Shown: positions 9,690 through 46,961, counted from the first letter of the stretch. The stretch is 64,000 nucleotides of DNA from Patescibacteria group bacterium (GCA_015491245.1 WFWH01000002.1:3823-67822), one strand, 5' to 3'. Translations and numbers: made by a program. Notes: a model not told the origin generated them from the letters alone.

Positions 9690-10448
9690 ATGGAAGAGGA
9701 ATATCAACCTGCCCGCGCACACTCTCCCGCACGCCGCAGCGGCGCGTGGGGTATCGCCGCCGCCATCGTGGTAGCAGGACTCATGGTGGCGAGTGCATTC
9801 TGGGCAACCCGCACCCCCTCTACCAGCCCCGTGAAAGAGCCGCCCGCGGCACAAAAGCAAGGTGCCATAGCCATTCGTCCCGTTTCCGAAGAAGATCATA
9901 TTCGTGGCGATCCGAACGCGCCCGTGGTGATTGTGGAATATTCCGACTATGAGTGCCCCTTTTGCGCGAAGTTTGACCTCACCATGCAAAAGCTCATGGA
10001 AAAGTACGGGAAAGAGGGCAAACTGGCGTGGGTGTACCGCCACTTCCCCATTGAGCAGCTGCACAAGAAAGCGTGGCGCATCGCCATAGGGAGCGAGTGC
10101 GTTGCGGAGATAGCAGGCAATGATGCGTTTTGGAAGTATTCCGATCTCGTGTTTGCGCAAATGCGCAAACGTCCGCCGGGCAGCCTGGAATTTGATATGA
10201 CGCTACTCTCCGATTACGCCGAGGAGGCGGGCGCTTCACGCGAGGCGTTCAATGCCTGCATGGAAACGGAGCGCACGCGCCCCAAAGTGCAGGAGGACTA
10301 CGACGAAGCGGTGAGCGGCGCACAGGCAAAGGGAACCCCCCACAACATCATTATTGCGGGGGGGCAAATGGCGGCCGTGCCCGGCGCACAGCCCTACGAC
10401 GTGCTGGACCAACTCATCGCCTCCATCCTCAGCGGCCTGGGAGAGTAG
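9690..10448 (+). CDS. membrane-anchored DsbA-like thiol:disulfide oxidoreductase (thioredoxin fold, CPFC)
   Basis: TM helix GIAAAIVVAGLMVASAFWA, then VVIVEYSDYECPFCAKF. Confidence 0.6.
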   Translation: MEEEYQPARAHSPARRSGAWGIAAAIVVAGLMVASAFWATRTPSTSPVKEPPAAQKQGAIAIRPVSEEDHIRGDPNAPVVIVEYSDYECPFCAKFDLTMQKLMEKYGKEGKLAWVYRHFPIEQLHKKAWRIAIGSECVAEIAGNDAFWKYSDLVFAQMRKRPPGSLEFDMTLLSDYAEEAGASREAFNACMETERTRPKVQEDYDEAVSGAQAKGTPHNIIIAGGQMAAVPGAQPYDVLDQLIASILSGLGE

Positions 10449-10533: not shown

Positions 10534-13500
10534 CTATGCCTCACGCGACTCCTTTCTCTCAAACAGCTCCCGCACCAAGGGGCAAAACGAGGTGGTGCGC
10601 GCATCGCACGGATCGCGGAGAAATTCCAGGTGGTAGATGCGGCGCGCCGCCGCGGCTATCTCTTCCTCCAACCGTGCCACTTCCTCATCTGTTATGGAGG
10701 CGACATAGGGCGTACGCACCACGCCGCGCGCATCAGGCTCCACGAATTCAATCGCCGCATGCGCCATGGCCGGCTCGTTACGGTGCGCCCGTTGCCAGAG
10801 CAAGCGGTAAAACACCAGCTGGCGGTAGTAGTCTCCCGCACCCTGCGCCTTAGTGCGTCCCTCAATGTGGTTGCGTGATTTCGGCTTCCCCGTTTTGTAA
10901 TCCACCACGCGCACCCCACCCTCCTCCACGAGATCCACGCGGTCCAGCATCCCCCGAAGCGGAAAAGAGAACCCCTCGGGGTGCTGAAACTGCGCCGTGA
11001 GAGAAAGTTCTGTCGCGAACACGCGCGGCACCGCCGCGCAACGCGCCTCCCAATAGCGCGCCAAACTCTCTTCCCCTTTTTTGCGCATCTCTTCCCACTC
11101 GCGCGCGGAAAGCGGCTTTCGGGAGAGATGGTAGCGGAAGCGGTCTAAGAGGTAGGCGCCGTCCGCGCGCTCTCCGGTGCGCAGGCGCTCATAGTGGTCC
11201 CGCAGCGCCTGATGCACCGCATCACCAAAGAGCATGTGGCGGTTGGGCGAGAGGGGCACGCGCAGCAGATTGGCAAAGAAATACTCCCACGGATTTTTGA
11301 GAAAATTGTTGAGGGCGGTGACGGAAAGCCCCTGCTCCAAAAAGAGCGCACGCAGGTACTCCTCATCTATCGGCGATACAATGCGCGCCTGCCGCGGCGC
11401 CAGCAGCAGGGCGGGGTCAAGGTTTTGCTCAAATGCGTCCCCCGCTACCTCTTCGCGATAGCGCGGGTCTATCTCTTCAATAAACCTGCAGGGGAGCTGG
11501 GGGCGTCCCGAGAGAGAGCGGGTCGCATAGGTAATGGTAACCCCGTGCCGCGCACGGGTAAGCGCCACGTAGAAGAGGCGGCGCTCGTCGTCAATGGCGC
11601 TTTCCGCCGCATCTTCGGACAACCCGGTGGTCAAGGTAAAGTGCGCAGCGGGGCGCGCGGCGCCTCCCCAGTGTGCGTCGTATGCCTGCACGAGGAATAC
11701 GTAATCAAACTCAAGTCCCTTCGCTTTATGGGCGGTCATACAGCGCACCGACGGCGTGCGGACGCGCGGACGCACGCTCTTTACCGGCACGCGATGCTCC
11801 TCAAGGAGAGAGAGGTAGCGCACCACCTCTGCCATGCCGTAGTCACGGTGCGCTTCCAAGAGGCTCTGTATATCACGCAAAAAAGAACGGAAAAACTCCA
11901 GCCGCTCCCTTCCATCTCCGAGGGTGAGGAGATGGCGCACAAATCCCGATTCCTGCGCCACCGTATCCAACACCTCCAACACGCCGCGATTGCGTGCGAG
12001 GCGGCTCCAGCGGGCAAGTGCGTTCCCAAGTTCCGCCATCCGTGCGGAATCTCCCACTCCGGCCTTTTCCAAGAGTGCGGGCTGCGCGAGCAACCCATAT
12101 AAGCTCTTGCCGCTATCGCGCCGCAGGCGCATCAGTTTGTAGATATCCAAGGGCGCTAAACCGGTCACCTCCCAGCACAGAAACGACGCCAAGAGCTCCT
12201 CATTGCCGTAGTGTACCAGTGTGCGCAACAGCGAGACGAATCCGCGCAAGAGCGGGTCTGCCAGGACATTCTGGTCGGATTCCACCACAAACGGCACGCC
12301 CAACCGCTCAAAATCCGGTATAAACTGCTCCACATCGCGGTTGTTGCGGTACAGCACCGCTATCTCCTCCGCCGGCACCCCTTGGTCTATAAGGTCGCGC
12401 ACGGCGCGCGCGACATACGCTGCCTCAAATGCGGGTTCCGAGAAAGAAGCCACGGTGATTTTCTCCCCCGTCTCCTCGAGATGTGCCTTGAGCGGCTCTT
12501 TCAATTCCACCTCCGCCAACCCCCCCTTCGCAATCATGCTGAACGAGGAATCCAATATGAACTGACGCGAGCGGTAGTTGTCGGAGAGGCGGATGACCTC
12601 CGCTTCGGGATACTTTTTCTGGAAATACAGGAAGTTCTCCAGGGAAGCTCCCTGGAAGCGGTAAATGGCCTGCTTGGCATCGCCCACCAGAAACAGGTTG
12701 GGCCGGGGATGAAAACTGGCGAGCAATTCCAGAATGCGGTTTTGCGATTGGTTTGCATCTTGATGCTCATCCGCGAGCAGGTAGAGGTATTCTTCCTGCA
12801 CCGAAAGCAGAAAATCTTCGTTGCGCTCCAGCGCCGCAACGGTTTCCACTATCATGTCATCAAAGTCATAGCGGCGCTCCTCGCGCAGGCGTTGCTCGTA
12901 GCGCGCGTACAATTGCGCCAAATCCTCATTCTTTTCCAGCTTGGCCTCCCAAACCACGTACTTCCCTTTTTTCTTTCCCTTGTGCGGCCCTTTCTCGTGG
13001 TAGAGGTCCTCAATGGAGGCGAACGCTTCGCGCTCTTTACGCGCGCGGCGCGCCGCCTCCTCGGGGCTGATCGCCTCTTTTTTGAGGTCACTAATGGCGC
13101 GCGCCACGTGCGGCAGGTAGTGGTAGGGGCTGCCAAAGGGGCGCAGACGCTTCAGCGGTGCCTCATCAATGAGCGCCTTGAGCAGCTCCAGCTTATCCAC
13201 TTCGGTTAAAAGCTGCGCACCGATAATGCGGGGATAGGCATCCGGAAAACGGCGAATGAGATCATTGCAAAAAGAGTGGAAGGTATAGATGGCTACTTGG
13301 TAGCCGCGGCTTCCCACCATTGCCACCAGGCGCTTGCGCATCGCGTACACGCCCGCCTCGGTGAACGTCAGCGCCAAAATGCCCGAGGGCGGGGTGTCGG
13401 TGAGGCGCAAGATGTTGGCGATGCGCAGTGTGAGGATTTGTGTCTTTCCCGTTCCCGGGCCGGCAATCACCATGACCGGTCCCTCAATGGTGTCCACCGC

Positions 13501-41302: not shown

Positions 41303-41330
41303 GGGCGTGTCTGCAGCCCGCAAGGAGAAT

Positions 41331-41363
41331 GCAAAAACGGCACCTACGGTGCCGTTTTTGCAG
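41331..41363. terminator. bidirectional intrinsic terminator: GCAAAAACGGCACC-tac-GGTGCCGTTTTTGC
   Basis: Perfect 14-bp stem with A/T runs on both sides. Sits between thrS (+) and the convergent surface-protein gene (-). Confidence 0.7.
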
Positions 41364-41404: not shown

Positions 41405-44206
41405 TTAGCGGCCGGCGGCCGCTCCCCGCAGCGCGCCCTGTTTCTCTTCACTCCTGCGCGCAAAGAAGCCGTTTAACTTGGTGAGGGCGATTTTTGCCCC
41501 CACAAGCGGCGCGCCGTAGCTGAAGTCAACACTGTCTGCAAATGCAGCGAGCACCAGCTCAAAGTCTTTGTCCTGCCATGTGCGGGTAAGCGCCACCACC
41601 TCTTTGTCAGGCTTGCGTCCGCCCTCCAGCCGCTGCTTGTACGCCTCATCCAACTCGCGCAGCATGAGGCGCAGGAGCGCATCCGGCTCAACTTGGGCCG
41701 CCTGCGTTTCCTGCAGGACGCGGTAGGCGCCGCGCTGGTCCCCCTGTGCGAGGGCAGACAAGAACTTTTTCATGCGGCGCCTGAGCGAGAGGCGCTCTTC
41801 CGCGGGAGCGGCTGTTTCCTGTTCCTGCTCCTGCACGTTGGCTGCTGGTTCTGCCGCGCCGTTTTTCTCGCGCATCGCCCCTGCGAGAGGCCCGTGCGGC
41901 ACCAAGGCGTCCGCGTCATGCGCCGCCTTCCCCTCCCCTTTATGGTACGGGGCGGAAGGCTGGCGTGCCGCAGCGCCTACCACCGCCGAGAGTGCCGCGG
42001 CGAGCGGCGACGCTTCCTCGCTCTTTCCTGCGGCTGCCTCCGTGCCGCGCTCCTCTCCAGAGTCCGCCTGCCGTATCTCTTCCTCGCGTTGCTTGCGGCC
42101 GCGGCGGCGCGCGAGCAGCATATGCACCCGCTCAGGCGAGAGGAGTATCCATCCGTCCTCGCGGGGGAACGTTTCCTTGGCGAGCGCGAGCACCTCCTCA
42201 ACGAGAGTGTCGCTTCCCTCCTTCTCTTCCGCGCGCAGGAGCGCATGCTGCGCTTGGGGAGAGAGCAGTATAGACTCCTGTTGCGCTGCCTGCTCCAGGG
42301 CTTTCTCGCGCGGTGCCTTCTCATGCGCTTCCAAGACGGGCGCTGCCACTGCAGACTGAGCGATCACCTCCTCCGTTTCCAGGCGTACGCCCTGTGGCTT
42401 ATTTTCTTCTGCCGCAGAGAGATGCGGAAGGGATGCCGCAGAGGGCCCCATGAGCCACTGCCACAGGCGCCGCGCTCCATCGCGCATGACTAAAAAGTAG
42501 GAGAGCGCCGCACTCACCGCGAGCAGAAATGCCCAAAATAGCGCGGTGACAAACGGACCCGCCTCAAACCCCGTGTAGGGGATTTGGTTCAGGTATACGA
42601 ACGAACCCGGCTTGGCTGTTACCACTTTTTTGGCGACGACCACTTTGGGCTTTTTTTGTTCGGGTTGGGGCTCATCTTTGTCCTCTTCTTCTTTGCTGCC
42701 GCAATTCAAACAGCGGCCCCCGCCTCCGCCGCCACTGGCGCGCGTGACCGACGCACTGCAAGACGCCTCATTGCCCTGCGCATCCTTGAAGACGCCGGTA
42801 TAGGTTTTAGCGCCGCCGGGCACGACCGCCCTGCTTCCCGTAGCGGCGACATCGCCCACATCGGGGGTAATGGTACCGCCCACAGCATTCACCGAGGTCC
42901 ACGAAAGCGTCACTGCTTGGGAAGCAGAGGTTACCCGTGCGGGCGACACGGTGAGCGTACACTGCGGAAACGCGTCTGTCACATACACCGCCACCGTCGT
43001 GCTGCAGGTGACGGCAGTGCCGTCACTCCCGGTAAAGGTTCCGGTAAACGTGGTAGTTTTGTTGAGGGGTACCGTCGTACTTCCCAACGCATCCACCGCA
43101 CCGATGCCTTGGTCTATGGACCCCCCGGTCACATGTTCCGCGCGCCAATAAATCGTAGTCGATGCTCCTGCGGCAACCTTTCCGGGTTCCGCCCAAAGTT
43201 CACACACCGGCGCTTTGGGGGCGGGCGGATCCCCCACTTTTTCAAATGCCGCACATATGGGGTAGACGCTATTGGGGGAACTGGTGTCGGGGTACACCGC
43301 ATGTTGGGCGTACACCTCCGTGACCGCCTCACTCAGAAGAAAGTTGCCGTCATGGACCTTGTTAACCTGCAGTGCCTCCACCACATTATCCTCCAAATCT
43401 ACCGTTGCGGCGGTGCCGCTTATGAATCCTTTGTCATTGGTGAGTATCACCTTGTAGCGCTCATCGGGCTGAGAAGCATTCTCGCGCCCTAGGTAACCAT
43501 CCCATGCCGCGAGGGTAACCGTATACAACCCCGGCGAGAGCGATACCGGTACGCGTGCGCTCTGCGCCTCCTTCCACCCCTTGTCGCTGCGCAGCTTTTT
43601 CTCGCCAAAAGAAACAATCGTGCGGTTTTCTCCCGGCGTAAGGGGGCACGCGGGACGTGCCGGAGGCTGCGGCGTTTCTTTTTCAGTCACCTGCACACAG
43701 CGCGGCACCACACTGTGCGGCTCATCGCTCTTGGGGTAGCGCACATGGCGCACCACCACGCGCGCCACGTCGCGCGAAAAAGAAATGTTGTCACCGAAAG
43801 AGCCGGTTACCTGCCCCAGCTCCACTCCGTCGGGCACATCCTCGGTGGGACCGAGCGTAACAACCTCATTGCCGTCAGCATCTAGGAACAACACCTTCCA
43901 CTGCTCCTCGTCTTGGCGATTTACATCCGCATTTTCACGCCCCACATACCCATCATAGGAGAAATAGCGCACCGTATATGTTCCCGCGGGAAAAGAAGCC
44001 TTGCGCGAGAATTCAGTAATGCCCTTGGAAGCTACCAAACGCTTGGTGCCAAAATCCACCACGCCCGCACCGGTAAAGGGACACGCGGCATCGCGTGCCT
44101 TGGTACCTGCCGCAAACGCGGGAACAGGCGCACCGGCAAACAGCAGCGCCAGCGCCGCAAAGGCAATGAGCGCGCGAGAGGTGAAGTGTAAGGTGTGGGT
44201 ACGCAT
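41405..44206 (-). CDS. large surface protein (933 aa): signal peptide, duplicated Cys-bounded domains, Ig-like repeats, Gly-rich linker, [LI]PxTG-like IPYTG + TM + basic stop-transfer, then about 330-aa cytoplasmic domain
   Basis: Signal peptide MRTHTLHFTSRALIAFAALALLFAGAPVPAFA. Internal duplication ACPFTGAG...TYTVRYFSYDGYVGRENA // ACPLTPGE...LYTVTLAAWDGYLGRENA. The sorting-like segment is ...YLNQIPYTGFEAGPFVTALFWAFLLAVSAALSYFLVMRDGARR... Confidence 0.6.
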   Translation of the reverse strand: MRTHTLHFTSRALIAFAALALLFAGAPVPAFAAGTKARDAACPFTGAGVVDFGTKRLVASKGITEFSRKASFPAGTYTVRYFSYDGYVGRENADVNRQDEEQWKVLFLDADGNEVVTLGPTEDVPDGVELGQVTGSFGDNISFSRDVARVVVRHVRYPKSDEPHSVVPRCVQVTEKETPQPPARPACPLTPGENRTIVSFGEKKLRSDKGWKEAQSARVPVSLSPGLYTVTLAAWDGYLGRENASQPDERYKVILTNDKGFISGTAATVDLEDNVVEALQVNKVHDGNFLLSEAVTEVYAQHAVYPDTSSPNSVYPICAAFEKVGDPPAPKAPVCELWAEPGKVAAGASTTIYWRAEHVTGGSIDQGIGAVDALGSTTVPLNKTTTFTGTFTGSDGTAVTCSTTVAVYVTDAFPQCTLTVSPARVTSASQAVTLSWTSVNAVGGTITPDVGDVAATGSRAVVPGGAKTYTGVFKDAQGNEASCSASVTRASGGGGGGRCLNCGSKEEEDKDEPQPEQKKPKVVVAKKVVTAKPGSFVYLNQIPYTGFEAGPFVTALFWAFLLAVSAALSYFLVMRDGARRLWQWLMGPSAASLPHLSAAEENKPQGVRLETEEVIAQSAVAAPVLEAHEKAPREKALEQAAQQESILLSPQAQHALLRAEEKEGSDTLVEEVLALAKETFPREDGWILLSPERVHMLLARRRGRKQREEEIRQADSGEERGTEAAAGKSEEASPLAAALSAVVGAAARQPSAPYHKGEGKAAHDADALVPHGPLAGAMREKNGAAEPAANVQEQEQETAAPAEERLSLRRRMKKFLSALAQGDQRGAYRVLQETQAAQVEPDALLRLMLRELDEAYKQRLEGGRKPDKEVVALTRTWQDKDFELVLAAFADSVDFSYGAPLVGAKIALTKLNGFFARRSEEKQGALRGAAAGR

Positions 44207-44266
44207 AGTAGTCGTGGCTAATTAATGAGATTAAGTAAGGCGAATAAATAAAATAGGCGCTGCTGC

Positions 44267-44300
44267 ACGTAATACCGCGCACATCCAGAGTGTATGCGTG
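44267..44300 (-). promoter_or_regulatory. candidate promoter TTGCCA-16-TACACT upstream of the surface-protein gene
   Basis: Minus strand caatTTGCCAcctgccataacacgcaTACACTctgg. Coordinates approximate. Confidence 0.3.
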
Positions 44301-44466
44301 TTATGGCAGGTGGCAAATTGGCACGTAGTGCCGCAGCGTCCTATTTTTCTTCAAACGAACGAAAGAGCGGTGGGCCGGTACGGCACCGCAGTGCCTTCTC
44401 AGGTATCGCGGTGCGCGCCCGTGCGCCTTTCGGAATTTTGAGAGAAGTATACAATATATGGAAAAA

Positions 44467-45297
44467 TTAGTCAATAATCGGGAATGCGCCGACAAAATAC
44501 GCCTCCACAAGGTAGCGCTCGTCTTCTTCGCCCAACACATTGCACGTAGCGAGCGTCAGCATGCGCGTTTCGGTGGAGAATACCACCGGCGTCTCCGGTG
44601 CCAACACCAGTGAGACACGCCGCACACGATACACATAGTTGGTGTCGCGCGTTTGTATCTTGATGATGTCTCCCTCTAAAAGCTCCTTGAGGCGGTTGAA
44701 AACCTTGTAGTTTTTATTCCGCACATACGGCAGCTCGCTGGAGTGCCCAAACAGGAATACGTTGGAGACATCATCCATAAAGCCCGAGGTGGGATAGTGC
44801 ACCACCCCGCGCATGAGTGCCTCCTCTAACACAGGTATGGCGGTGCTCGACGGCGAGATTACCGGTGCGTCCACCTTAATGCGGGGAATGATGATCCTGC
44901 GTGGCGCGCTTGCCGGCAGGGGGCCGGTGCGCACCGCGCGCGCAGGGGTTCCCTCGGTCTTAATGCGTAGGGTATTGTTTCTCTCGGCGGCGGCTGCCGC
45001 CGCAGGGGTATCAGGCGTGGCGGTCTGTGCAGTGGTATCAGATTCTGGTTTTTCCTGTGTTGTGAGTGTAGATGCGGCAGCCGCCGCGCGCTCTCCGGAA
45101 CGCGCAGGAGGTGCGGCGGCTCCAGGCTCGTTCGCGTGCGCTGCGGGTTCCGGCAGGATATCAAAAAACGCGAACGTGCCGCTCAGGAATGCAAATAGCA
45201 CCCCCCATACGGCAAGGTATGCGGCATACCCGCGGATGCCCGGGGTGTGTGCGCGCGTGTAAGTGCTGCGGTGAGGTATGGGATGAGAAAATTGCAT
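44467..45297 (-). CDS. sortase-family transpeptidase (membrane-anchored)
   Basis: N-terminal TM helix AYLAVWGVLFAFLSGTFAFF. Catalytic-triad context FLFGHSS (His), LTLATC (TLxTC Cys) and RYLVEA (Arg). Confidence 0.75.
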   Translation of the reverse strand: MQFSHPIPHRSTYTRAHTPGIRGYAAYLAVWGVLFAFLSGTFAFFDILPEPAAHANEPGAAAPPARSGERAAAAASTLTTQEKPESDTTAQTATPDTPAAAAAAERNNTLRIKTEGTPARAVRTGPLPASAPRRIIIPRIKVDAPVISPSSTAIPVLEEALMRGVVHYPTSGFMDDVSNVFLFGHSSELPYVRNKNYKVFNRLKELLEGDIIKIQTRDTNYVYRVRRVSLVLAPETPVVFSTETRMLTLATCNVLGEEDERYLVEAYFVGAFPIID

Positions 45298-45313
45298 GGT
45301 TTACTGTGTTTAT

Positions 45314-45342
45314 ATTTTACCACAAAAAAATATATGAGTCAA
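45314..45342 (-). promoter_or_regulatory. promoter TTGACT-17-TAAAAT for the sortase gene
   Basis: Minus strand agTTTGACTcatatatttttttgtggTAAAATataaacacagtaaaccATG. Confidence 0.5.
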
Positions 45343-45431
45343 ACTATACTACCACACACCGAAAGGCGCCGTGAGCAGCGCCGCGCCGCAGCACCCATAC
45401 CCCCTCCCCGACCGAGCGGAAAGGGTGACAT

Positions 45432-45460
45432 TTGACACAAAAAATCAAACATGGTATCAT
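45432..45460 (+). promoter_or_regulatory. promoter TTGACA-17-TATCAT inside the 434-bp divergent intergenic region; about 270-nt leader (or ncRNA) before the CARDB gene
   Basis: gtgacatTTGACAcaaaaaatcaaacatggTATCATcatgcc. Confidence 0.45.
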
Positions 45461-45593
45461 CATGCCGGTTCTCATCTGTTCTCCACTTTTTCTTCCCTAC
45501 AGAATCTTAAGAGGAATCAAAAAACAATACTCTTGTTGTTGGTGCAGCGAGCGTTCCCTGCGACCGCGCCCACAAGTGCGCGCCGCCGGACCT

Positions 45594-45610
45594 GCGCCAT
45601 GGCGCCATGG
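45594..45610. repeat. palindromic tandem repeat GCGCCATGGCGCCATGG
   Basis: Two copies of GCGCCATG forming a 14-bp perfect palindrome CCATGGCGCCATGG, inside the putative leader. Confidence 0.4.
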
Positions 45611-45731
45611 TGTAGTGCCGAAGATTACTTTCATTAGTGCATAATATCTTAAATTACCCACCCTAATTAAATAATCAATAAACAAAAAACCATTACCCGA
45701 TTGCCATTAGCGCCCTAAACCTTACACACGT

Positions 45732-46961
45732 ATGATGCACGCCACACACTCTCGCCAGAACACCCCGGAGCCTCAGGAAACCCAGAATGATGCCGCCGCT
45801 GACGCCGCGGGCGCTTCGGCAGAGGCGCACACCTCTCACCCGGCGGTAAAGTTGTTTGCCCTCATTGGCCTTACCGCGATTCTCTTTGCAGGTGCGTGGT
45901 TCTCCGTTAAACTGGTTCAGTGGCTCCCGGGTATCAGCTCCGCCGCTTCTACCTTTACCCTGCGCGAGGTGTTGCCCTTCCCTTTTGGGAACGGAGAAGG
46001 GGCGCGAAAAGGGGCACTGCGCCTCACACTCCCTTCACTGAGTGTAGCGCATGGGGCACCCTTCACTCTCTCCTGGGAATACCCCGGCACGCCGGAAGGC
46101 GCTCCACTATACGCACTCTCCTACACTTGCGCAGAAGGGGTCTCGCTCAGCGTGGTAGATGGGCTCACGATACGCGACCTTCCGTGCGGCACTCCCTACC
46201 GATTCTCCAGTGAGAGCAGAAAAATGCTCCTGGTGCCGCGCTCTTTGAAAAACCGCTTTATTGACGTAACCCTCTCCCTGGTGCTGTTGCGTGCCGATGG
46301 TACGCCGCGCGAGGATACCCGCGCCACGCAAATCATTACCATCGTAAACGAGCGCATCAGTGACAGTCCCTCACTGCGCTCCCCGAAAAAGGGGCAGCGC
46401 GCGCCCGGCCAAGGCAGCACAGGAGACACGAATGCGCCGGAAGCGGTGTCGCGCACCGAGGATGCGGTGCGGGCCGCACCGCAAACCCGCGCGCCGCAAA
46501 AGCCGGTAACGGTATTCGTACCCAATCCCAAGACACGCGAAAATCCCAGTGGCGCGCCTGATCTGGCGGTAGAGGCGCTCACCGTGGGCGCTTCGGTGAC
46601 GGTAAACGGAAAAGACATTTTTGTGCCGCGCACCACCATTGCCGGCTCTGCGACGCCCACTATTTCCTTCCGGGTATCCAATCAAGGCGATAAGCGCAGC
46701 GGCAGCGCATGGCGCTTCCGCTTAACCATCCCCCTGAAGGGTGGGCAAACCTTCACCTACACCTCACCCGCGCAGGAAGTGCTGAAACCCGGAGACTATA
46801 TAGAGTACACCGTTGGTTTGGAGGAACTGGAAGCGGGATCCTATACCGCTACCGTAACCCTCCTCAAGGTTGCGGGCGACAAAAAAGATGCCAACAACCG
46901 CGCCGAGGTATCGTGGAAAGTGGTGTCCTCCGCGCAGGGTAAAGATAAAAACAACTCTTAG
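45732..46961 (+). CDS. membrane-anchored hypothetical protein with C-terminal CARDB-like (cell-adhesion-related) domain
   Basis: TM helix VKLFALIGLTAILFAGAWFSV. CARDB pattern PDLAVEALTVGASVTVNGKDIFVP...ISFRVSNQGDKRSGSAWRFRLTI...LKPGDYIEYTVGLEELEAGSYTATVT. Confidence 0.5.
   Translation: MMHATHSRQNTPEPQETQNDAAADAAGASAEAHTSHPAVKLFALIGLTAILFAGAWFSVKLVQWLPGISSAASTFTLREVLPFPFGNGEGARKGALRLTLPSLSVAHGAPFTLSWEYPGTPEGAPLYALSYTCAEGVSLSVVDGLTIRDLPCGTPYRFSSESRKMLLVPRSLKNRFIDVTLSLVLLRADGTPREDTRATQIITIVNERISDSPSLRSPKKGQRAPGQGSTGDTNAPEAVSRTEDAVRAAPQTRAPQKPVTVFVPNPKTRENPSGAPDLAVEALTVGASVTVNGKDIFVPRTTIAGSATPTISFRVSNQGDKRSGSAWRFRLTIPLKGGQTFTYTSPAQEVLKPGDYIEYTVGLEELEAGSYTATVTLLKVAGDKKDANNRAEVSWKVVSSAQGKDKNNS

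Follow-up and report, generated by a model that had tools for sequence, protein, structure and literature searches.

In a large group of ultra-small bacteria, the Patescibacteria, a core gene pair encodes a sortase and a surface protein whose putative wall-sorting signal lies in the middle of the polypeptide, being followed by a transmembrane (TM) helix and a conserved, presumably cytoplasmic domain that is predicted to fold like part of the DNA clamp loader; we found no description of such an arrangement. The pair was examined in a 64,000-nt stretch of DNA from a Patescibacteria group bacterium (hereafter, the window). The sortase gene (44467-45297, minus strand, 276 aa) lies upstream, on the same strand, of the gene for a 933-aa secreted protein (41405-44206, minus strand). 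Both open reading frames exist as given in a preliminary description of this locus, so that its observation of a sortase next to a substrate with an internal sorting signal is confirmed. Some details, however, had to be corrected: the motif is at residue 542 and not about 600, the tail comprises 358 and not 330 residues, and the two genes, described as immediately adjacent, are separated by 260 nt (44207-44466). This spacer contains promoter-like sites (44474..44446 and 44316..44289, minus strand); in orthologous loci, the median spacer is 156 nt.

The sortase matches the Pfam family PF04203 with 78.2 bits against a cut-off of 26.6 (E=5.9e-22). It has an N-terminal TM anchor at residues 24-46 (nt 45160-45228), an Ala/Pro-rich linker, and a catalytic domain at residues 135-267 (nt 44497-44895) with His185, Cys252 within LTLATC (residues 247-252), and Arg261; all three residues are conserved at 90% or more across 74 sequences (73 syntenic orthologues plus the window). 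In contrast, the protein falls below every class-specific cut-off of NCBIfam: the best scores are 52-53 bits for class D (cut-offs 140 and 165), 47.8 for class E (160), 36.4 for class C (160) and 28 for class F (166). The closest PDB sequences are the class D sortases 2LN7 and 4D70.

The 933-aa precursor starts with a hydrophobic, signal-like segment at residues 1-33 (nt 44108-44206), which ends APVPAFA|AG and was identified by a hydropathy scan and by reading of the sequence. It is followed by two tandem Cys-bounded beta-sandwich modules at residues 42-170 and 187-318 (nt 43253-44083), which align with each other with z=33.8 against shuffles, and by two Cys-bounded Ig-like repeats at residues 335-401 and 416-483 (nt 42758-43204), which align with z=13.9; hence, the repeats that had been noted in the preliminary description are real. 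The beta-sandwich modules resemble carbohydrate-binding modules of the CBM36, CBM6 and CBM35 type, although there is no detectable sequence similarity (8-12% identity) and the modules, here, are bounded by a conserved disulfide-forming Cys pair. The Ig-like repeats gave only a weak HYR hit (E=0.02), and the same repeat type occurs in many homologues. Residues 489-538 (nt 42593-42742) form a stalk, likely a wall-spanning linker, with a Gly run, CLNC, an acidic stretch and then a Lys-rich stretch; a Gly run or CxxC lies upstream of the motif in about a third of family members. No Pfam or NCBIfam family could be assigned to the protein as a whole, and NCBIfam returned no family, including the LPXTG anchor models, at E<=0.1. 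Homologues were found only in Patescibacteria, with the addition of one DPANN protein that shares the ectodomain module.

The extended motif L-N-Q-I-P-Y-T-G-F-E-A-G-P occupies residues 539-551 (nt 42554-42592), with the pentapeptide IPYTG at residues 542-546 (nt 42569-42583) and the predicted scissile bond between T545 and G546 (the motif peptide being YLNQIPYTGFEAGP). The FEAGP spacer leads to a hydrophobic helix of 23 residues at 552-574 and the basic stop-transfer RDGARR at 575-580 (together, nt 42467-42553; in the AF2 model, a helix spans model residues 21-55). The geometry of this tripartite signal, that is, a pentapeptide, a 5-residue spacer, a hydrophobic stretch and a basic cluster, is canonical, whereas its position is not: 353 residues follow the basic cluster and 358 follow the TM helix, and across the family 191-420 residues (median 302) follow the motif. 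The motif is far beyond chance. Among the 150 best family hits, every full-length member has xP[YHE]TG, and the logo over 151 homologues, which share only 23-40% identity, reads L 148, Q 110, P 151, Y 147, T 151, G 151, F 143, E 107, A 136, G 134 and P 146; with a mean column identity of 51%, as compared to 28% for the whole module, this is the most conserved part of the module. A refuting condition set beforehand, namely homologues that keep the tail while lacking the motif, was not fulfilled by any of the 150 best hits. Within the window, no other [LIV]PxTG motif followed by a TM helix was found apart from a UppP false positive, and only a handful of such candidates occur in the 83 related loci; since whole genomes were not scanned, the sortase may have other substrates.

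The module, consisting of L-x-Q-[VIL]-P-Y-T-G-F-E-A-G-P, the TM helix and the tail, is a portable unit that recurs in 1289 protein clusters (E<=1e-3), always at the C-terminus and behind varied ectodomains of 12-1617 residues. All 83 related loci carry the module gene, and those whose contigs reach far enough show the same order: gyrB, a divergent membrane protein, sortase, this protein, thrS, dnaE. A same-strand sortase lies upstream in 58 of 58 loci that have at least 5 kb of upstream sequence, and most of those loci show no other candidate substrate. The cassette was found in at least 169 species-representative genomes, all 80 retained loci being Patescibacteria. It should be noted, however, that the whole neighborhood is syntenic in this lineage, so that adjacency alone is weaker evidence than it would be in a shuffled context.

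In the AF2 model, the tail is not merely a highly charged region, as had been proposed initially, but forms two folded domains with a clamp-loader-like fold joined by a disordered linker. Domain A, residues 630-716 (nt 42059-42319; ILLSPQA...EDGWILLSPER), is predicted to have an AAA+ lid-like fold and is the most widely kept part of the tail. The low-complexity linker, residues 717-801 (nt 41804-42058), has pLDDT below 50 and varies in length and sequence among homologues, whereas domain B, residues 802-932 (nt 41411-41803), is predicted to be all-helical, with a fold similar to the clamp-loader collar (domain III). Thus, in the predicted structure, lid-like and collar-like folds follow each other in the order seen in domains II and III of the bacterial clamp-loader subunits gamma/tau (DnaX), delta (HolA) and delta' (HolB), with the C-terminal region of MgsA/RarA as a further structural relative. 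Unlike the clamp-loader subunits, the tail has no nucleotide-binding domain I, either in the model or in the alignments, and no Walker or sensor motifs: after the TM helix, it starts with a disordered stretch followed by the lid-like domain. In addition, about 85 disordered residues separate lid and collar, the whole is fused to a TM helix and a secreted ectodomain, and some members keep only the lid-like domain. The clamp-loader similarity rests on a predicted structure, and sequence-level support is marginal: of the Pfam families DNA_pol3_delt_C and DNA_pol3_gamma3, neither threshold was reached (PF14840 scored 14.8 bits against a cut-off of 27.3, in 1 of 31 members), and hhalign gave P=0.0035-0.04, with one shuffled control at 0.026.

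When considering whether the internal motif is recognized by the sortase at all, it is important that the same signal occurs in canonical, C-terminal form in the same cassette. In one related locus (L083), a paralogue (12054-13139) ends with VPYTGIGTN, a TM helix and RRRKVVTEKI. Two further paralogues carry [LV]PETG, a TM helix and about 85 residues. Furthermore, in three contigs (L087, L088 and L089, that is, three assemblies carrying two distinct sequence variants), an A9 run ends frame 0 at KKKVS directly after the TM helix, with the tail encoded in the -1 frame, which suggests that the ectodomain plus signal can be made without the tail, although the A9 interruptions could, in principle, be homopolymer assembly errors. 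The opposite possibility, that a sequencing error fused two adjacent genes, a canonical sortase substrate and a separate cytoplasmic protein, in the present assembly, finds some support in the different frames of these three contigs but appears most unlikely and is contradicted by the present data: the reading frame is continuous in the window and in about 150 independent homologues from many assemblies, whereas the split versions differ from the fused ones by a single A in the A9 run and have no separate TM helix or start context for the tail.

Taken together, these data make sortase recognition the most economical reading, and we consider it more likely than not, albeit far from certain, that the pair represents a dedicated sortase and its substrate, which form a core single-locus cassette of a Paceibacteria/Parcubacteria lineage. 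In this view, the precursor would be exported by its signal peptide, so that about 540 residues, comprising the two carbohydrate-binding-like modules, the two Ig-like repeats and the stalk, end up outside the membrane, with translocation stopping at the TM helix and RDGARR. The co-encoded, membrane-anchored sortase would recognize LxQ[IVL]PYTGFEAGP at the outer face of the membrane, cleave between T545 and G546, and transfer the ectodomain to a cell-wall amine, the internal signal thus working as a normal cell-wall sorting signal. The remaining 388-residue fragment (G546-R933) would persist as an N-out/C-in membrane protein, its cytoplasmic part containing the lid-like and the collar-like domains but no ATPase domain. 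By analogy with clamp-loader and MgsA collars, the tail most likely acts as an oligomerisation or docking module, which could cluster or position precursors before cleavage and, after cleavage, could persist as a one-to-one cytoplasmic record of surface assembly. Both the tail's fold type, which belongs to cytoplasmic proteins, and the paired cysteines of the ectodomain, along with a DsbA-like protein encoded at 9690-10448, fit the proposed topology. Whereas the anatomy, the conservation, the synteny and the predicted folds have been established by this analysis, the membrane topology, the cleavage itself, the acceptor molecule and the function of the tail are inferred. Accordingly, the initial interpretation, by which cleavage at IPYTG would transfer the ectodomain to the wall or lipid and release a separate cytoplasmic fragment, is only partly supported: the pairing and the architecture of signal, TM helix and long tail are conserved across a large Patescibacteria lineage, but cleavage between T545 and G546 would leave the TM helix with the C-terminal piece, which would stay in the membrane rather than be released.

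A less likely alternative, which has not been ruled out, is that the protein is an uncleaved bitopic receptor or adhesin that links, in one piece, an extracellular glycan-binding domain to a cytoplasmic docking domain, with PYTGFEAGP being a conserved juxtamembrane structural element and the sortase serving other, canonical substrates. Indeed, there is no direct evidence of cleavage; conservation extends well beyond the pentapeptide, to flanking residues that typical sortase signals do not fix (L-3, Q-1, and FEAGP after the glycine); the tail is highly conserved and physically coupled to the ectodomain in most members, suggesting that it matters for the two to be made together; and the canonical C-terminal substrates encoded nearby could be the real targets. 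On the other hand, P, T and G are invariant at exactly the positions a sortase needs, the spacing to the TM helix and the basic cluster is canonical, the paralogues with a plain C-terminal signal use the same [LIV]P[YE]TG motif, the variants with the A9 stop would make the ectodomain plus signal alone, and the sortase is adjacent in all 58 loci that could be assessed.

It is also conceivable, though improbable, that the sortase processes the motif but the acyl intermediate is not resolved on peptidoglycan, the acceptor being a lysine of another copy (pilus-like polymerisation), a lipid, or the conserved 409-aa protein encoded by the divergent gene (45732-46961, plus strand). In favor of this possibility, the sortase meets no established class threshold, leaving its acceptor specificity uncertain, the extracytoplasmic partner is always encoded divergently next to it, and CPR cell envelopes are poorly understood (PMC5220378). 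However, there is no conserved pilin-motif lysine: YPK occurs only in module 1 of this protein, whereas the family consensus at the corresponding position is YPD. Besides, most loci have a single substrate gene, with no tip or base pilin set and no second sortase in the cassette, and the closest solved relatives of the enzyme are class D anchoring sortases.

Compared to the canonical LPXTG signals with a housekeeping or dedicated sortase, such as S. aureus SrtA and protein A, or the class D SrtC of B. anthracis with LPNTA substrates, the present system shares the N-terminal signal peptide, a [LIV]PxTG pentapeptide, a short spacer, a helix of about 22 hydrophobic residues, a basic cluster, and a membrane-anchored Cys transpeptidase with an H/C/R triad encoded next to its substrate. 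It differs in that the signal is followed by a long conserved tail, the recognition motif spans about 13 fixed positions, the sortase scores far below all class A-F cut-offs, and the pair is a single-locus core cassette inside a housekeeping neighborhood. In the archaeosortase/PGF-CTERM, exosortase/PEP-CTERM and rhombosortase/GlyGly-CTERM systems, a short motif, a TM helix and basic residues likewise form a portable sorting module that is attached to many different ectodomains and paired with a dedicated processing enzyme; those signals, however, are terminal and their enzymes are unrelated polytopic proteins, whereas here the enzyme is a true sortase and a large, presumably cytoplasmic domain follows the signal. 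There is a precedent for a membrane remnant of a sortase substrate having a function of its own, namely C-pep signaling in streptococci, where the remnant left after SrtA cleavage of an LPXTG adhesin modulates a histidine kinase (PMC11502775); C-pep, however, is a peptide of about 30 residues with no cytoplasmic domain, whereas here the remnant would be a 388-residue protein with two folded cytoplasmic domains.

To our knowledge, sortase substrates are defined by a C-terminal signal whose remnant is a disposable peptide of about 30 residues, a rule that this family breaks. If cleavage is confirmed, this would be the first sortase substrate known to us in which one translation product yields both a wall-anchored surface protein and a membrane-tethered cytoplasmic protein, providing a built-in one-to-one link between the outside and the inside of the cell. 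The finding also gives a testable function to an uncharacterised core gene trio of Patescibacteria, organisms with a poorly understood envelope and host-attachment biology, and provides a reusable sequence signature for the family, namely LxQ[VIL]PYTGFEAGP, a TM helix, and then ILLSPEA...EDGWILLSKER. The clamp-loader-like fold predicted for the tail of a membrane protein is unexpected in itself. A speculative and rather unlikely extension can be envisaged, in which the membrane-tethered lid and collar module left by sortase processing, the counterpart of a wall-anchored, glycan-binding ectodomain, docks onto the clamp loader of the replisome or another AAA+ machine, physically or stoichiometrically coupling cell-surface assembly, or host contact, to DNA replication or segregation in these minimal episymbiotic bacteria. 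The fixed position of the cassette between gyrB and dnaE would then reflect that link and, in one sub-lineage, slippage at the A9 run (a dnaX-like A AAA AAG site in L087 and L088) would set the ratio of tail-less to tailed product.

As for the surroundings of the pair, the sortase gene and the divergent gene are separated by a 434-bp control region (45298-45731), as had been described, with promoter-like sites pointing to the sortase (45342..45314, minus strand) and to the 409-aa gene (45432..45460, plus strand). The 409-aa membrane protein has an N-terminal TM helix and two beta-rich extracytoplasmic domains, and its homologues sit in the same position and orientation in 65 related loci. Its initial designation as a CARDB-domain protein could not be confirmed: there is no Pfam hit at E<=0.1, only a weak NCBIfam choice-of-anchor D hit (E=0.045) and no PDB sequence hit, the second domain showing a CARDB-like pattern in sequence only. 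On the other side, the substrate gene is followed by a strong terminator-like hairpin with a 15-bp stem (41330-41362, minus strand), which is shared with the convergent thrS.

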